A stretch of DNA of 14,213 nucleotides from IMG/VR virus record IMGVR_UViG_2698536549_000018; one strand, given 5' to 3'. The notes under the pieces are model-generated. The model saw only the letters and a list, made by a program, of their open reading frames with translations, did not search any database and was not told the origin of the DNA. Position numbers and translations under genes: made by a program. Positions 2,979-12,263 of this stretch are shown here, in pieces; position 1 is the first letter of the stretch; every line of letters begins with the position of its first letter. This DNA comes from a virus (lineage: Duplodnaviria; Heunggongvirae; Uroviricota; Caudoviricetes).

Positions 2979-3055
2979 TGGACCGCCATCGAGGACTCGA
3001 ACCCCGCGCAGCCAGCTTCGAAGGCTGGCGCTCTATCCCGATGAGCTAATGGCGG
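2979..3055 (-). tRNA. tRNA-Arg (anticodon UCG by manual fold)
   Basis: Reverse complement folds as a cloverleaf: acceptor CCGCCAT/ATGGCGG (7 bp), D-arm GCTC..GAGC, anticodon stem CCAGC/GCTGG with loop CTTCGAA, T-arm CGGGG-TTCGAGT-CCTCG, discriminator and encoded CCA. Confidence 0.8.
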
Positions 3056-3064
3056 TATGTGATA

Positions 3065-3139
3065 TGGTGGCCTTGCTGGATTTGAACCAGCGACCTGGCG
3101 ATTATGAGTCGCTCGCTCTCACCACTGAGCTAAAGGGCC
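3065..3139 (-). tRNA. tRNA-Ile2/Met-like (anticodon CAU), ileX-like, with an apparent 1-nt deletion in the 3' acceptor strand
   Basis: Reverse complement GGCCCTTTAGCTCAGTGGTGAGAGCGAGCGACTCATAATCGCCAGGTCGCTGGTTCAAATCCAGCAAGGCCACCA resembles E. coli tRNA-Ile2. Anticodon loop CTCATAA, T-loop TTCAAAT. The 3' acceptor strand reads AAGGCC where AAGGGCC is needed to pair with 5' GGCCCTT. Confidence 0.7.
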
Positions 3140-4039: not shown

Positions 4040-4395
4040 GCGCACTCCAGTTCTGTGATTTTTATCCCCAGCCGCCCACCAGGAACGAGCTGACCGCGCA
4101 CAATATTGATTTCATCAAACTGCTCGTCGTCTATAAGTAGTCCGGCATGCGTCAGCGCATCCAGTGGTGCCTTCAGGATATTGTCCAAGTCGCGGCGGCG
4201 CTTATCCGGTGGCTCTGCAATAATCTTTATCGCCAGCCTTCCGGACAGGTTTAATTTCAGCCGCTGCTGGCGAACAATAAGCGCCACATCATGGCGATAA
4301 CGCTTTCCGGCCTCCGAGATGAAATACGTATTGCCATGACGTCGCCAGTAGGTATTCACCGTCGGCGGGTAAGGCAAAACAAACTCTATACACAT
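4036..4395 (-). CDS. rusA: Holliday junction resolvase RusA (119 aa from the ATG)
   Basis: Sequence matches the RusA family (..YRHDVALIVRQQ..PPDKRRRDLDNILKAPLDALTHAGLLIDDEQ..GGRLGIKITE..), including the catalytic D-rich core. SD GGGGG upstream of the ATG at 4395. Confidence 0.85.
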   Translation of the reverse strand: MCIEFVLPYPPTVNTYWRRHGNTYFISEAGKRYRHDVALIVRQQRLKLNLSGRLAIKIIAEPPDKRRRDLDNILKAPLDALTHAGLLIDDEQFDEINIVRGQLVPGGRLGIKITELECA

Positions 4396-4409
4396 CAATA
4401 CCCCCCCTT

Positions 4410-5467
4410 TTACCCAAGCACACCGGTTGCAAAGGCGTGATCAAGAAAACGAAAAATTAAATCAACCTGAGAACCATGCTTTTCTTCGAACGCCAGCGGA
4501 TCCACATGAAGCTCGTTATGATGCTCCCGACACAGCGGTAGCGTGAAAATATCGTGGGCTTTTGTTCCCATTCCCCCCTGACCATGACCAATCAGGTGAT
4601 GCGGATCGTCAGCTGGCTTACCACAACACGCACACGGCTGTGTCTTTACCCAGCGCGTGTATTTCTCATTAACCCAACGGCGATGTTTAGGCCGCTTCAT
4701 AAACGATTCAGGAGACTCCGGATCAACGGCGATACTGACAACCGTTTTTTTCTGTGGTGGATTTTGTTGCTGGTGGACGTGAAGTGGCAGCGCAATATTT
4801 TTTGTGCGCTGCTTCAGTATGCTGATGGCTGTCTGTTCTCCCGGTACGATGTCACTCTCACGGTATACGGAGCGGATTTTTTCCNNNNNNNNNNNNNNNN
4901 NNNNNNNNNNNNNNNNNNNNNNNNNNNNNNNNNNGCATCCACCACCTGATTGCAGGCCGCCCACCAGGATAATTCGGCCAGCGATAACTCCCTCTCCTGC
5001 GTACCGCTTATTGCGTGACGTATAACATCAATCATCCAGACTGCCAGATTCTGCTGAGCAAGTTGATCGAGTGATTCTGATGTCTGGTCGCGCAGCTGGT
5101 TGTCACAGTGCCAGCACAACACCATCGCGCCGGTACCGTAACGATGTATGACTGTTTCACTGTGATGATAGTCACCATGAGGCCACTGGCAGGATTTGAC
5201 ATGACGCAACAGCCAGTCAGACAGTGCGCCAGCGCCGCCAGCAGCACGAATCACCCGCTCATCGCTGAAAAATGGCAGTAATGATTTATCTTCCGCCAGC
5301 GGCTGGCGAACAGCAGGAACAACTCCGGACGGCAGACCGCGCATGCTTTTCGGTTCCGGCTCCACCAGCACTCGAGGGTTATGAAATACCTGCATGGATT
5401 CACGGCCCGGCTTTAGCACCACCAGTCCAAGTTCCGGTACCGGAACAGGTCGAAGCAATACCCGCAC
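4410..5467 (-). CDS. DUF968-like prophage protein (YdfU-like, ~350 aa) with Cys/His-rich HNH-like C-terminal region; interrupted by an assembly gap
   Basis: Two ORF-track pieces (4410-4964 and 4814-5467) are separated only by the N run and are in different frames, consistent with a gap of arbitrary length. C-terminal motif ..CACCGKPADDPHHL..HGQGGMGTKAHD..LPLCREHHNELH... GTG start at 5467 with GGAGG 5 nt upstream. Confidence 0.7.
4885..4934. other. Assembly gap (50 N) inside the DUF968-like gene
   Basis: Run of n characters read directly from the sequence. Confidence 0.99.
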
Positions 5468-5907: not shown

Positions 5908-6063
5908 TTACTTCTCAGATTCGTAGTCCACGAAGACAGCGACCTCCGTCTGGCCGGTTCGGATTCGTACCTCGCAGAGGTCTTTCCTCGTTACCAGTGC
6001 CGTCACTATGACGGTTAAACAGATGACGATCAGGGCGACTAACATCGCCTTTTGCTGCTTCAT
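5908..6063 (-). CDS. hok: Hok/Gef-family type I toxin (51 aa); in-frame upstream ATG at 6120 gives a 70-codon mok-like frame
   Basis: MKQQKAMLVALIVICLTVIVTALVTRKDLCEVRIRTGQTEVAVFVDYESEK matches the Hok signature (single TM helix, conserved ..RK.LCE.R...G..EVAAF..YES..). GGAG SD upstream of the ATG at 6063; terminator downstream. Confidence 0.85.
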   Translation of the reverse strand: MKQQKAMLVALIVICLTVIVTALVTRKDLCEVRIRTGQTEVAVFVDYESEK

Positions 6064-6274
6064 AGACTGCTTCTCCTTGCCTTTCGGCACGTAAGAGGCT
6101 AACCTACATTTGTGAGACATAGATTGGGCCTCAGATTAATGTTAAGCGTCTTGCAGGACGCGTAATGTTAACTGGGGCTTTTCTCTATCTGCCTTTTGGT
6201 GTTCATGCCTGAGGCAGATAGCCTCAAGCACCCGCAGCAATTCTACTTAACTCTCCTTTTCCCGCAAACCGTTT

Positions 6275-9139: not shown

Positions 9140-10240
9140 TTACCCCCTGAAGCCTGGCGGAATTTCGGTATCCGGTTCAGAAACATGATTCACACAACGC
9201 TGGTTGTTCGTGCCGCTTACCGGGAGCAACCAGGGGTTTTCAAAATTCCGGTCCGGTCCAAAAAACGTCGTCGCTCGCTGAACAAATTCCGTTCCCGTTT
9301 TCCCGGTAGTCGCCAAGTATCTTGCGTAACGCCTCACGCCATCCAGCATGGCCTCTGGTGGCACCCCCTCGCGTAATCTGGCCTTCCAGGCACTGAAAGC
9401 GGATTTCTTCGGGTTTGCCCCGGCACGCAACGGGTATTCCCGCCAGACCTGTTCGAACACATCCGGATAATCCACTCGTCCCACAGGCTGCCCGGTGTTT
9501 TCCGGGACTACCTGATCGGCTTCCCGCTGAATGGCGGAATCGGCTTCAGGCTGCTGCAGTTGGTGTGATTGTTCCGGCCTTGCGGTCATCGCCTGCTGCA
9601 CAGCGCCCGAATCGGCTTCCGGTGTCGTGCCTGCTGGCTGACCAGGATTGACGTTCTGAACATCCCCTGCCTGGTTCGTGGCGATTTTTTCGCCATGAAG
9701 CATAGTATTTTTATCCTGATCCTGTTCTTTCTCCTGTTCTTGGCTTAGAAGCCCCTTTAAAGCCTCTTCGAAGCCCCTTGCTGAATTCCGGCGATTATTC
9801 CGCCTCACATCCAGATGGAAATCCGTTTTATATCTGTCGTAAAAGGCTGACAGAAAGGCGTTTTCAGGTAATGATGCATACTCATTCCTGACACCTGCAC
9901 AACGGTTATCTCCAGGCTTCAACGTTTCCCCAACCTGCCAGGCTGCCATTTCATGGACCCAGACCATCTCGGCATCATGGTCATAGCTACAAAAACCAGC
10001 TTCAACAGCCCTTTTAAGCCCCTTCGAAGCCCCTTCCGGACCAAGCCCGGTTTCATGAGCAAGGTACAAAACTGGCAGGTAATACAAACCCAACATATTT
10101 GCGTGAGGGGATGTCATCAGGTAAAAAGCAACAACTTGCGCTTCTGCACCCGCCTTTCTAAGTTCTCTCCCCGTTTCTCCCAGCCAGAATCGCGGGGAAA
10201 CTTTTGCATAATCACGCATGTTCACCTCGTCTGGAGCCAA
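9140..10240 (-). CDS. Putative phage replication-initiation / replisome-organiser-like protein (366 aa; alternative ATG start at 10219)
   Basis: Largest early-operon ORF, at the position of O/YdaU-type replication genes. Low-complexity Gln/Glu/Pro-rich linker between N- and C-terminal domains. Function assigned by position and general resemblance only. Confidence 0.7.
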   Translation of the reverse strand: MAPDEVNMRDYAKVSPRFWLGETGRELRKAGAEAQVVAFYLMTSPHANMLGLYYLPVLYLAHETGLGPEGASKGLKRAVEAGFCSYDHDAEMVWVHEMAAWQVGETLKPGDNRCAGVRNEYASLPENAFLSAFYDRYKTDFHLDVRRNNRRNSARGFEEALKGLLSQEQEKEQDQDKNTMLHGEKIATNQAGDVQNVNPGQPAGTTPEADSGAVQQAMTARPEQSHQLQQPEADSAIQREADQVVPENTGQPVGRVDYPDVFEQVWREYPLRAGANPKKSAFSAWKARLREGVPPEAMLDGVRRYARYLATTGKTGTEFVQRATTFFGPDRNFENPWLLPVSGTNNQRCVNHVSEPDTEIPPGFRG

Positions 10241-10243
10241 ACC

Positions 10244-10291
10244 TTCCTCTGGTTATAATCTGTGATTCACTAATCAACAGAACCAGAGGAG
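10244..10291. promoter_or_regulatory. Inverted repeat TTCCTCTGGTT-N26-AACCAGAGGAG spanning the divergent start region; contains TATAAT at 10254-10259 and both divergent SD sequences
   Basis: 10-of-11-bp inverted arms at 10244-10254 and 10281-10291. The left arm complement carries the replication gene SD (GAGGAAGG); the right arm carries the SD (GGAGG) of the plus-strand gene at 10299. Confidence 0.4.
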
Positions 10292-10298
10292 GTTCGAC

Positions 10299-10694
10299 AT
10301 GGATTTTGCAACTATCACAAGTAGCGTTGTGTTGAGTGCGTGTGTTGCTGGCGTGGTTTCGCTGGTTAATGGTGCCTGGCAACGCAAATCGGAACGAACC
10401 ATTGAAGCGCAACGCCGGGCTGCTGAAGCCAGAGCAAAAATAAGAGAAATGGCTCTCACCCTCGCATTGAAAGAATGGGAGCTCCACCAAACCATATCGA
10501 AGGCAAAGGGGTATGGTGTCAGCGGCCCAGAAGTTTACGTCTTTCGATACTTTCGTATGCTCAACCTGATGGAGGAAGACAAATTCACGATTGAAAATCT
10601 CAGACTGATCCAGTACGACTCCATGTGTGCTGTTGCAGCAATTCAGGCAGAGATCGAGCGATATCGGGAGAAAAACGGCCTCCCGATGCCATAA
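10299..10694 (+). CDS. Hypothetical membrane-anchored protein (131 aa) with N-terminal TM helix and coiled-coil region, opposite in orientation to the early operon
   Basis: ATG with strong SD (CAGAGGAGG, 6-nt spacer). N-terminal hydrophobic segment (ITSSVVLSACVAGVVSLV) then charged helical region. Converges on the 73-aa minus-strand gene with a 4-bp gap. Confidence 0.6.
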   Translation: MDFATITSSVVLSACVAGVVSLVNGAWQRKSERTIEAQRRAAEARAKIREMALTLALKEWELHQTISKAKGYGVSGPEVYVFRYFRMLNLMEEDKFTIENLRLIQYDSMCAVAAIQAEIERYREKNGLPMP

Positions 10695-10698
10695 ACAA

Positions 10699-10920
10699 TC
10701 AGCGTTTTTCATCTTTCCAAATCCTCATATCAGGCTTGCGCCCAATGAACCGACGAAGACAATTTAAAGTCCATCGGGTGAAGTAATCCCTGAAACCAAA
10801 GAGATACCAGGTGAACAGATTCACGATAAAATGTCCGGCCAGAGCCCCACCAATACCACAGGCAAGAACAGTAAAAAAATCAGGTAGATTCACAGCCCCC
10901 TCCGTCATTGTTAACGCCAT
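10699..10920 (-). CDS. Small membrane protein (73 aa)
   Basis: Hydrophobic segment (FFTVLACGIGGALAGHFIVNLFTWYLFGF); ATG start, weak SD. Confidence 0.45.
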   Translation of the reverse strand: MALTMTEGAVNLPDFFTVLACGIGGALAGHFIVNLFTWYLFGFRDYFTRWTLNCLRRFIGRKPDMRIWKDEKR

Positions 10921-10928
10921 CCGTGCTT

Positions 10929-11354
10929 TTAGTGCATCACCACGGCATTTCCTGCCGGGCCACCACGGTTCATCTGATTGAAACCGGCAATCGCCACTGC
11001 GACAAAATCATCAGCGTCTCTCACCAGTCGTTCCCGCGTCTCCACCAGCTCCCGAAAATAGGCTGAACTGTGGCTGCGCATTCGGGCCACCAGCAAAGGT
11101 GGCATTGCCTTTTCGATCGCTGGTAACAACGCCTGAATTTTTTCAACAGCATCAAGGGTGTCTTTCTCTACCCAGCGGAAAATTTTCTGGGTATTACGAG
11201 CTAGGGCTTCCGGATGGCTGTCGCCGTACAGTTCCGGAAATGTCATTCCCAGTTCAAAATACGCTTTGGTAATCTTCGCAGTTGGTACTTTCTCGCCATC
11301 CGGATGCGCCCAGGCATTCATCGCCATGCGGATGTGCTCATGGCTGATTTTCAT
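10929..11354 (-). CDS. YdaT-like protein (141 aa), second gene of the Rac-type Cro/YdaS-YdaT module
   Basis: Size and position match Rac YdaT (second gene after the cro-like gene, divergent from the repressor). Overlaps the 3' end of the Cro-like gene by 17 nt. Confidence 0.7.
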   Translation of the reverse strand: MKISHEHIRMAMNAWAHPDGEKVPTAKITKAYFELGMTFPELYGDSHPEALARNTQKIFRWVEKDTLDAVEKIQALLPAIEKAMPPLLVARMRSHSSAYFRELVETRERLVRDADDFVAVAIAGFNQMNRGGPAGNAVVMH

Positions 11355-11661
11355 GAATCATTTGCCTCTTGATATTTCGGGTATGCTCGTTTTCGTCATT
11401 TGGTTGCTTCATCAACATATTCAGCGAATAGCATGACGAGCGTCGTAAGTATGACCAGTCAACATCAGGACGAAGTTCTTCGCACAGAACACCACCTCTT
11501 GTTGCACGTTCAATTGCTGGACATCGCTCAGCAGGCAACTGACGTACACCTTTGATCCATTGATTTACGCTTGGAGGTGATACACCTAAAAGCCTAGCCA
11601 TTGCAGATTGCCCACCGACAACAGCACACGCTCGTTTGAATGAATAGTTCTCTTTTTTCAT
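11338..11661 (-). CDS. Cro/YdaS-like helix-turn-helix regulator (107 aa)
   Basis: HTH signature (..QSAMARLLGVSPPSVNQWIKGVRQLP..). First gene transcribed leftward from the operator region, divergent from the repressor. Confidence 0.75.
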   Translation of the reverse strand: MKKENYSFKRACAVVGGQSAMARLLGVSPPSVNQWIKGVRQLPAERCPAIERATRGGVLCEELRPDVDWSYLRRSSCYSLNMLMKQPNDENEHTRNIKRQMIHENQP

Positions 11662-11691
11662 CGAATGAACTCCAAAAAAACACGAAACAAT

Positions 11692-11760
11692 ATTAGGCGA
11701 CGCCTAATACAAATGTCAATAGGCGTCGCCTAACGCAAATGAAGTAGGGATTGCCTAATG
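11692..11760. promoter_or_regulatory. Right operator region: three 17-bp operators (ATTAGGCGACGCCTAAT at 11692-11708; AATAGGCGTCGCCTAAC at 11718-11734; GTAGGGATTGCCTAATG at 11744-11760) with a leftward promoter (-35 TTGACA complement at 11714-11719, -10 near 11691-11696)
   Basis: The first site is a perfect 17-bp palindrome, the second near-perfect, the third degenerate in one half. Centres are 26 bp apart. TTGACA sits between sites 1 and 2 on the minus strand, with a TAATAT-like -10 overlapping site 1. Confidence 0.6.
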
Positions 11761-11786: not shown

Positions 11787-12263
11787 ATGCTTAGTGGTAA
11801 AGACTTAGGCCGAGCGATAGAGCAGGCCATTAACAAAAAAATTGCATCAGGATCCGTCAAATCAAAGGCGGAGGTAGCGCGTCACTTCAAAGTCCAACCA
11901 CCATCAATCTATGATTGGATTAAGAAAGGTTCGATAAGTAAAGATAAACTTCCAGAGCTATGGCGTTTCTTTTCTGATGTGGTTGGCCCAGAGCATTGGG
12001 GGCTTAACGAATACCCCATACCCACCTCCCTCATTTCAGATACAAAAAGTGAACTTTTAGACATAAACAGCCTTTATCAAGCCGCCTCTGATGAAAAAAG
12101 AGCCATTGTGGCTTTTCTCTTATCAGCAAATGCCACGGAACCTGGTTGGGTTGATCATGACGTTCGCGCCTACATTGCCACAATGGAGATGAAGGTAGGT
12201 AAGTATTTGAAAGATCAAGAATCAGAACGGAAAAGCCAGAACATCACCAAAACGGGAACTTAA
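11787..12263 (+). CDS. Prophage repressor, RacR-like HTH protein (158 aa)
   Basis: Divergent from the Cro-like gene across the operator array. GGAGA SD upstream. N-terminal HTH-like segment (SKAEVARHFKVQPPSIYDWIKKG). Same length as Rac RacR as recalled. Confidence 0.75.
   Translation: MLSGKDLGRAIEQAINKKIASGSVKSKAEVARHFKVQPPSIYDWIKKGSISKDKLPELWRFFSDVVGPEHWGLNEYPIPTSLISDTKSELLDINSLYQAASDEKRAIVAFLLSANATEPGWVDHDVRAYIATMEMKVGKYLKDQESERKSQNITKTGT

Follow-up and report, generated by a model that had tools for sequence, protein, structure and literature searches.

The window studied here, a stretch of 14,213 nucleotides (nt) from IMG/VR record IMGVR_UViG_2698536549_000018, is the early region of an E. 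coli prophage that is lambdoid and Rac-like. Positions 10100–11000 are 100% identical to strain HY220605 and 99.6–99.8% identical to 14 further complete genomes. The early operon lies on the minus strand, in the order pR-like promoter, ydaS, ydaT, a small open reading frame (ORF) ending at 10699, and the first replication gene, after which come DUF977, DUF4406 and further early genes. Between the small ORF and the replication gene, one gene for a 131-residue protein is read from the plus strand, against the operon. This gene is PD-lambda-6, known from earlier work as a single-gene defence against phages. It sits in a slot of Rac-like lambdoid prophages, between ydaT (or cro) and the first replication gene, in which counter-oriented genes, here called cargoes, are carried behind a conserved leader of about 69 nt. 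Coordinates are given in Table 1.

The 131-residue product aligned from end to end with the PADLOC profile PDLC04020 (PD-Lambda-6; E 9.2e-90, 295.6 bits, 1–131 of 131 aligned) and matched phrog_36733 with an E value of 1.4e-91. The plus-strand ORF is real, as judged from its substitutions. Against the Citrobacter homologue the plus frame contains 53 synonymous and 15 non-synonymous codon changes, and 59 of the 80 differences are at third positions (15/6/59 by codon position), which fits purifying selection in that frame. PD-lambda-6 was found as a sub-library peak protecting against lambda-vir, and was reported as a 131-residue 'Hypothetical' of strain UMB6655, validated on a low-copy plasmid under its native promoter (Vassallo et al. 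2022; PMC9519451). The published system and the window gene belong to the same family over their full length and share size, E. coli origin and lambdoid prophage context. Neither has a recognisable domain beyond a transmembrane helix, and HHpred on the published protein gave transmembrane-like matches only (PMC9519451). Protection against lambda-vir was demonstrated for the UMB6655 allele (PMC9519451), and the window allele is assigned by its sequence. An earlier note on this DNA had described a membrane-anchored plus-strand gene running against the early operon and had guessed at an accessory function of the exclusion or abortive-infection type. The ORF, its coding strand, its membrane anchor (see below) and the kind of function are all borne out, the last by the validated defence against lambda-vir. 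The gene was already catalogued, and its rediscovery is ordinary.

PD-lambda-6 was present in 17 of 5426 complete E. coli genomes, with alleles of 96–100% DNA identity. The family is small, with 8 clusters in a word-indexed search and 10 representatives in an exhaustive HMMER search, and its motifs are conserved down to about 30% identity. A profile search of genome contigs found 2 loci only. In the isolated-phage collection the locus was nearly absent, with 5 matches that all fell on the ydaT end and one match to the leader. The context of the locus was therefore taken from prophages. The only isolated-phage record with the leader (locus L131, 3501–3577) is PP818812.1, named 'Actinobacillus phage vB_Apl-pPE4'. 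It carries an E. coli-type dicA/ydaS/ydaT early region, and its Actinobacillus host label looks doubtful. The E. albertii copy of PD-lambda-6 (L005, 3001–3396) is frameshifted near its 3' end to give 123 residues with an altered tail, and the leader and the small gene of that locus are likewise degraded. At L138/L139, a 39%-identical relative is found between PAPS-reductase-like and family-A DNA polymerase genes, overlapping the polymerase gene convergently, in a non-lambdoid setting and without the leader.

An AlphaFold2 model of PD-lambda-6 (predicted local distance difference test score 87) contains helices at residues 3–70, 77–92 and 98–125. Hydropathy peaks at residues 5–23, where a 19-residue window exceeds 1.6 on the Kyte-Doolittle scale, and the first ~23 residues of helix 3–70 are hydrophobic. 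In this model PD-lambda-6 is small, with a single membrane helix at the N terminus and a three-helix cytoplasmic domain. By the positive-inside rule, the basic stretch QRKSER that follows the hydrophobic segment would place the C-terminal domain in the cytoplasm. A later review ties the PD-lambda-6 system to a lipoprotein. A lipobox-like LSAC does occur at residues 12–15 and is not conserved among homologues. We rejected the lipoprotein reading, since the n-region MDF is acidic and has no Lys or Arg, and Cys15 is missing in homologues of 38–49% identity. None of the systems validated with PD-lambda-6 affected adsorption (PMC9519451). PD-lambda-6 probably acts on phages that have already adsorbed, at the inner membrane, by DNA-entry exclusion or by membrane-based abortive infection. 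HK97 gp15, P22 SieA and SieB, lambda RexB and T4 Imm are small inner-membrane prophage proteins that block phages at a post-adsorption step. PD-lambda-6 is likewise membrane-anchored and without effect on adsorption, and no sequence or fold similarity to these proteins was detected.

The gene, which the earlier note had described as inserted into the early operon, does not stand alone in its position; it is one of many cargoes that share a leader and a slot. The leader was collected from viral contigs by an exact search for GGAGGTTCGACATG, which gave 120 stretches, 45 of them with a leader-like left element upstream; nearly all of these 45 carry the same leader. The motif GGAGGTTCGACATG is common to all cargoes, but it is also the search pattern. 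With the leaders of the other loci added, 24 distinct variants precede at least 8 cargo families without evident mutual similarity, of which only PD-lambda-6 and ECs1072 were compared directly. Besides PD-lambda-6, the slot holds ECs1072-like proteins of 151–156 residues, a second family of 151–155 residues, a family of 92–99 residues, a family of 77–83 residues, a BssS-family protein and others, with ECs1072 being the commonest cargo. The 131-residue protein did not match NCBIfam NF033230 (ECs1072 family), and homology between PD-lambda-6 and ECs1072 was rejected, as BLASTP against an ECs1072 member gave an E value of 4.4. The BssS-family (biofilm regulator) protein is encoded at L054 6373–6624, in the same slot and behind the same leader.

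Comparison of prophages places a mosaic junction at either edge of the leader. Strains M15 and M8 combine the leader, PD-lambda-6 and the small gene with another replication gene (DUF1376) and another immunity region, and homology with the window begins at 10217, the last base of the replication-gene ATG (10219–10217). Many strains, O157 among them, have the same replication gene and leader with an ECs1072-family gene behind the leader, and homology stops at 10307, three codons into the cargo. The leader was found in 577 of the 5426 complete E. coli genomes, at up to three places per genome, and with at least four immunity regions (RacR/YdaS, LexA-family CI with Cro, S24-peptidase CI with P22-type Cro, and others). 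By these sequence comparisons, the intergenic leader is the constant part of the locus, and the genes on both sides are variable.

Within the leader lies an inverted repeat with a perfect 10-bp core, whose arms (TCCTCTGGTT and AACCAGAGGA) are separated by 26 nt. The core alone is only mildly unusual, because 81 of 2000 dinucleotide shuffles of 10100–11000 (4%) contained a perfect inverted repeat of 10 bp whose loop was 3–60 nt long. The structure is larger than this core. Read as RNA in the early-operon sense, positions 10298–10236 are predicted to form a hairpin of 26 pairs with a minimum free energy (MFE) of −33.9 kcal/mol as a 69-mer, or −34 kcal/mol in a 91-nt context, where its z score is −4.1. 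Its lower and upper stems comprise 17 and 9 bp and are separated by an asymmetric internal loop of 5 nt on the 3' side, which corresponds to the −10 box of the cargo strand; one A is bulged. The earlier note had proposed both the repeat and a hairpin in read-through early mRNA. Its 26-nt loop is correct, and the hairpin is supported by folding, conservation and strand-biased G.U pairs; the 11-mers that it gave as arms match each other at 10 of 11 positions, and it missed the full extent of the stem.

The hairpin has 21–28 bp across the leader variants. In all 24 variants the early-operon sense folds better than the cargo sense, by 3–12 kcal/mol. The MFE stems contain 76 G.U against 2 A.C pairs, and the aligned outer-helix pairs, in a sequence-based alignment, contain 57 G.U against 1 A.C. 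This asymmetry marks the early-operon sense as the strand under selection. The outer helix is 95.9% paired, compared with 29–55% in controls with the partner column slid. In a covariance-model alignment 89% of the positions are paired, and 8 of the 26 pairs, including 6 of the 9 apical ones, show changes on both sides; at one such pair, 12 sequences have U-A and 9 have G-C. The covariation score was reached by 0 of 500 shuffles. A covariance model built from the leader alignment scored 91 bits on the early-operon strand of the site and 22 bits on its complement, and the model, R1, gave a single match in the window (85 bits) and no match in lambda. Rfam gave no gathering-level match at the leader, only one sub-threshold look-alike of a miRNA precursor (14.6 against a 54-bit threshold). 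An intrinsic terminator was considered and rejected, because no U run follows the hairpin: the sequence after it is GGCUCCAGACGAGG in the window, and ACCAG or ACCAA elsewhere among the variants. The conserved structure is thus predicted to be an RNA hairpin of early-operon sense with covariation.

The opposite strand of the leader appears to supply the expression signals of the cargo, namely a promoter with a weak −35 and a good −10, a Shine-Dalgarno sequence (SD) and the ATG. A −10-like hexamer (A2 and T6, at least 4/6) ending 33–39 nt before the ATG is kept in 21 of the 24 variants, with a perfect TATAAT in 8 of the 24, and the −35-like hexamer reads TTGGTG or CTGGTG in other variants. The right arm of the repeat overlaps the GAGGAGG of PD-lambda-6, as the earlier note had stated for the SD of the plus-strand gene. 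The PD-lambda-6 clone functioned from its 'native promoter' with 257 bp of upstream sequence (PMC9519451), and ECs1072, a cargo of the same slot, was detected on arrays of uninduced O157 cultures. With promoter, SD and ATG provided by the leader, the cargo could be made in the lysogen while RacR holds the early operon off.

No canonical intrinsic terminator was found by a terminator scan between the plus-strand gene and the convergent gene, in agreement with the earlier note. The scan gave two weak minus-strand look-alikes (10295–10280 and 10692–10675), which were rejected for having no proper U tract. The stop codon of PD-lambda-6 (TAA, 10692–10694) is 4 bp from the stop of the convergent ORF, again as described before, and the gene does not have the terminator directly after it that marks a moron. 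Since no terminator follows the cargo, its transcript would be expected to continue in antisense through the small gene into ydaT, possibly as far as 11086–11103. This site on the plus strand, inside ydaT, is the nearest terminator-like one (GCCACC...GGTGGC followed by ATTGCCTTTT); if it is used, the PD-lambda-6 transcript would be antisense to the entire small gene and ~175 nt of ydaT. Convergent transcription would probably also shut the cargo down once pR fires.

Table 1. Genes and sequence elements of the PD-lambda-6 locus, in window coordinates
Feature	Position	Strand	Basis or remark
racR, prophage repressor	11787..12263	+	PGAP (Prokaryotic Genome Annotation Pipeline) annotation of the 100%-identical locus; divergent from the early operon
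pR-like early promoter, TTGACA-18-TAATAT	11690..11719	-	promoter scan, 10/12 matches
ydaS, cro-like, first early-operon gene	11338..11661	-	Pfam YdaS_toxin and P22_Cro
ydaT, cII-like, early operon	10929..11354	-	Pfam YdaT_toxin; phrog_163, CII-like activator
Small membrane-protein gene, 64 residues	10699..10893	-	PGAP; GTG 10893 behind GGAGG; Citrobacter has ATG there
PD-lambda-6 gene, 131 residues	10299..10694	+	PADLOC, PHROG, codon changes, AlphaFold2, hydropathy
Conserved leader, ~69 nt	10233..10301	- (early-operon sense)	hairpin stem 10236-10298
PD-lambda-6 SD, GAGGAGG	10286..10292	+	6 nt before ATG
Right arm, AACCAGAGGA	10281..10290		overlaps PD-lambda-6 SD
Putative -10 box, TATAAT	10254..10259	+	sequence; in the asymmetric internal loop of the hairpin
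Left arm, TCCTCTGGTT	10245..10254		in the cargo-promoter spacer; 3' arm of the RNA hairpin
Putative weak -35-like hexamer, CTGGAG	10231..10236	+	17 bp upstream of the -10 box
Replication-gene SD, GAGG	10225..10228	-	5 nt before ATG; 7 nt 3' of the hairpin
First replication-module gene, DnaD-like helicase loader/initiator, 359 residues	9140..10219	-	phrog_1701, PGAP

The small gene that converges on PD-lambda-6 encodes a membrane protein. The earlier note had given it 73 residues, the form that would begin at ATG 10920. The product is probably 64 residues long from GTG 10893, which is favoured by PGAP, by the GGAGG in front of it and by the ATG found there in Citrobacter. The small protein has a hydrophobic segment at residues 6–27, with a 19-residue window above 1.6 on the Kyte-Doolittle scale. 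In its own frame the differences by codon position are 16/6/35, biased towards third positions, with 23 synonymous and 18 non-synonymous codon changes. The small gene was present in 17 of the 17 complete genomes with PD-lambda-6, and it adjoins PD-lambda-6 in four prophage backgrounds beyond that of the window. In E. coli M15 and in Citrobacter the same 4-bp gap separates the two genes, and in Citrobacter the small gene directly follows cro because that phage has no ydaT. The small gene lies 11 bp from the PD-lambda-6 stop in Trabulsiella, a decayed copy is found in E. albertii, and in Salmonella the two proteins bear adjacent locus tags. A convergent small hydrophobic ORF also follows the PD-lambda-6 homologues of 38–49% identity at L006, L010, L135, L136 and L137. 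We infer that the 64-residue membrane protein is probably a functional partner of PD-lambda-6.

The clone in which PD-lambda-6 was validated consisted of the ORF with ~257 bp on each side (PMC9519451). Because of these flanks the clone held the whole small ORF, if UMB6655 is arranged as in the 17 complete genomes. PD-lambda-6 was published as a stand-alone 'hypothetical', and the leader and the convergent 64-residue ORF in the clone were not discussed. Other cargo families of the slot also have conserved, mostly unannotated minus-strand ORFs. Such ORFs lie at L003 (~4340–4860, minus strand), L053, L065, L043, L091, L026 and L058, and they are unannotated in the one RefSeq locus checked (L003). 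An ORF with the motif ...SPH(I/V)W.GGL... adjoins ECs1072-family genes. Some of these putative partner ORFs overlap the cargo gene antisense by 190–320 nt, where either strand may be the coding one.

Taken as a whole, the explanation that we lean towards is that PD-lambda-6 is a cargo in a leader-marked slot, that the early-sense hairpin of the leader insulates or processes the early message, and that the convergent gene is its partner. The 5' arm of the hairpin would be the complement of the cargo ribosome-binding site (RBS) and carry an anti-SD-like CCUCC, and the 3' arm, a mirror copy of the cargo RBS, would tie up the 5' arm by pairing. In this way the hairpin would insulate the translation start of the replication gene from the variable, untranslated antisense-cargo RNA of ~400 nt. 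It may also be an RNase III-type processing site that splits the replication message from the antisense-cargo RNA. An insulator, an RNase III-type processing site or both are the most likely roles for the hairpin. RNase III sites such as the T7 early R sites, lambda sib and the N leader are intergenic hairpins of ~20 bp or more with an asymmetric internal loop in an early transcript. The leader hairpin resembles them in shape only, with no sequence similarity, and by this resemblance cleavage by RNase III is plausible.

Insulation was simulated in silico by replacing the 3' arm with a neutral linker. The predicted accessibility of the replication RBS in the window fell from 0.42 to 0.20, and the 5' arm paired with the replication SD instead. 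Without the 3' arm, accessibility dropped in 14 of 20 variants, and the mean was 0.37 with the arm versus 0.29 without it. The start of the replication gene itself is well placed. Its protein matches phrog_1701 with an E value of 3e-142 (residues 1–359 on profile positions 1–323), and the ATG at 10219–10217 is called by PGAP in three prophages, in agreement with related loci.

These data bear directly on the model of the earlier note, in which the left arm carries the SD of the replication gene and the hairpin sequesters it in read-through early mRNA, repressing translation. Two things favour it: RNA of the early-operon sense does form the hairpin, with AGAGGAAGG in the 3' arm, and the longest ORF of the replication gene opens, in the window, with TTG 10240. 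However, TTG 10240 was rejected as the start, since PGAP and the PHROG alignment both place it at ATG 10219, the mosaic junctions with other prophages fall at that ATG, and the TTG occurs in 2 of the 24 variants, most of which have TTC. The SD that serves the ATG lies 7 nt outside the hairpin, whose stem ends at 10236; it is largely unpaired in the MFE fold, and its equivalent is outside the hairpin in other variants too. Removal of the 3' arm lowers the predicted RBS accessibility, whereas occlusion would have it rise. Neither the placement of the SD in the left arm nor its occlusion therefore holds, and we regard repression by sequestration as very unlikely. Still less credible, to the point that it can be set aside, is that the plus-strand ORF is an artefact and that the true product comes from a 166-residue minus-strand ORF (10212–10712), co-directional with the operon. 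That ORF opens with ATG and spans the region, but the best minus frame has 40 synonymous and 28 non-synonymous changes, against 53 and 15 in the plus frame, so that codon-position analysis rejects it. Moreover, plus-frame homologues keep conserved motifs at ~30% identity, the AlphaFold2 model is confident and the ORF was validated experimentally.

Two other explanations take the palindrome as something other than RNA structure. In one of them it is a DNA operator, on whose arms a dimeric regulator would control early transcription through the site, the cargo promoter, or the two together. The arms flank the −10 box, the left one in the promoter spacer and the right one at about +15 to +25, and the outermost arms are conserved as sequence beyond their complementarity. 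A DNA palindrome, however, predicts no strand bias, yet G.U exceed A.C by 57 to 1, and in one sense only; the sequence of the inner and apical stems varies with pairing kept, and no common regulator is evident among the at least four immunity regions that have the leader. An operator is thus improbable. The other explanation keeps the leader only as a recombination homology patch or as promoter and RBS, with self-complementarity that has no function and comes from mirrored divergent SDs. The mosaic junctions at 10217 and 10307, at both leader edges, are as this explanation would have them, divergent GAGG/CCTC motifs yield 4–5 bp of complementarity for free, and the 10-bp repeat alone arises in 4% of shuffles. 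These motifs do not account for 21–28 bp of pairing that includes spacer and apical regions unrelated to SDs, nor for the compensatory changes and the one-strand G.U bias, and pairing falls to 29–55% in slid registers. We give a purely passive leader little chance of being right.

Several observations weigh against the favoured explanation of cargo, hairpin and partner. PD-lambda-6 has no Pfam or NCBIfam match, and Foldseek against the PDB returned no structural neighbour with an E value below 1. The consensus promoter scan did not call the cargo promoter because its −35 is weak. The accessibility simulation is weak, as 6 of the 20 variants go the opposite way, and RNase III cleavage is not predictable from sequence. 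The leader set was gathered with an exact 14-mer, so that variation of the outer stem is under-sampled, and its members are mutually related. As to the partner, the small ORFs beside the remote homologues are not detectably homologous to one another (21–23% identity), and the remote homologue at L138/L139 has no small hydrophobic ORF beside it. A truncated copy of the small gene, ~85% identical, is present in 251 genomes without PD-lambda-6, and these genomes reject strict co-occurrence of the two genes. The truncated copy (L132, 2494–2637, minus strand) is found just after ninE, where it faces a plus-strand gene of 590 residues that has no PADLOC match and looks effector-like.

The arrangement can be compared with known systems. 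In lambda, the promoter pO lies where cII meets O and is directed against pR; its product, OOP RNA, is antisense to the end of cII (PMC3349717). The window −10 box is likewise 35 nt from the replication-gene ATG and directed towards ydaT; the lambda product is a 77-nt self-terminating non-coding RNA, whereas the cargo here is protein-coding. No sequence homology was established between pO and the leader, and lambda has no hairpin at the corresponding position (z 0.36). Defence hotspots of P2 and P4 and lambdoid 'morons' are also fixed sites where many unrelated accessory or defence genes are expressed from the prophage. Unlike them, the slot described here is marked by a short conserved leader, one strand of which reads as promoter and RBS while the other gives an RNA hairpin. 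Its cargo is counter-oriented in the early operon and has no terminator of its own, and the cargoes examined face a convergent early-operon ORF.

A bolder proposal, which we put forward tentatively and consider doubtful, is that the leader is a cis element with two faces, not described before, by which a cargo-exchange slot is defined, and that the cargoes are convergent two-gene cassettes with an early-operon modulator. One strand of the element would serve as promoter and RBS for swappable defence or accessory genes expressed in the lysogen, and RNA from the other would form the hairpin within the early lytic transcript. The modulator, a cognate partner of the defence protein, would be a required cofactor, or else a self-immunity or antidote factor that is turned on at induction. 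The partner here would be the 64-residue membrane protein, and PD-lambda-6 would then not be truly single-gene. No prior description of the slot or the hairpin was found in the literature searched, of which the coverage was incomplete.

The remainder of the window contains further features of the prophage. Two copies of the gammaproteobacterial small RNA STnc100 are on the minus strand at 1953–2165 and 1–193 (172 and 113 bits), the second being interrupted by the window edge. A hok/sok toxin-antisense module occupies 5908–6233 on the minus strand, with the sok RNA at 6061–6233 (120 bits) and a hokD-like ORF at 5908–6120. The late-regulatory region carries two tRNA genes (2982–3139, minus strand), which are tRNA-Arg and tRNA-Ile by the annotation of the matching genome. 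Fifty masked positions (N) at 4885–4934 fall within a DUF968-like ORF.

The leader, searched with covariance model R1 or with GGAGGTTCGACATG and its mirror, tags the slot in ~10% of complete E. coli genomes. Nearly all cargoes of the slot are uncharacterised small proteins, which makes it a cheap source of candidate defence genes of lambdoid prophages, as the P2 and P4 hotspots have been. Mechanistic work on PD-lambda-6 should account for the convergent membrane ORF in the validated clone. The leader itself is a short DNA under double constraint, as promoter and RBS on one strand and as structured RNA on the other, and it suggests how a phage tolerates a backwards gene in its early operon.

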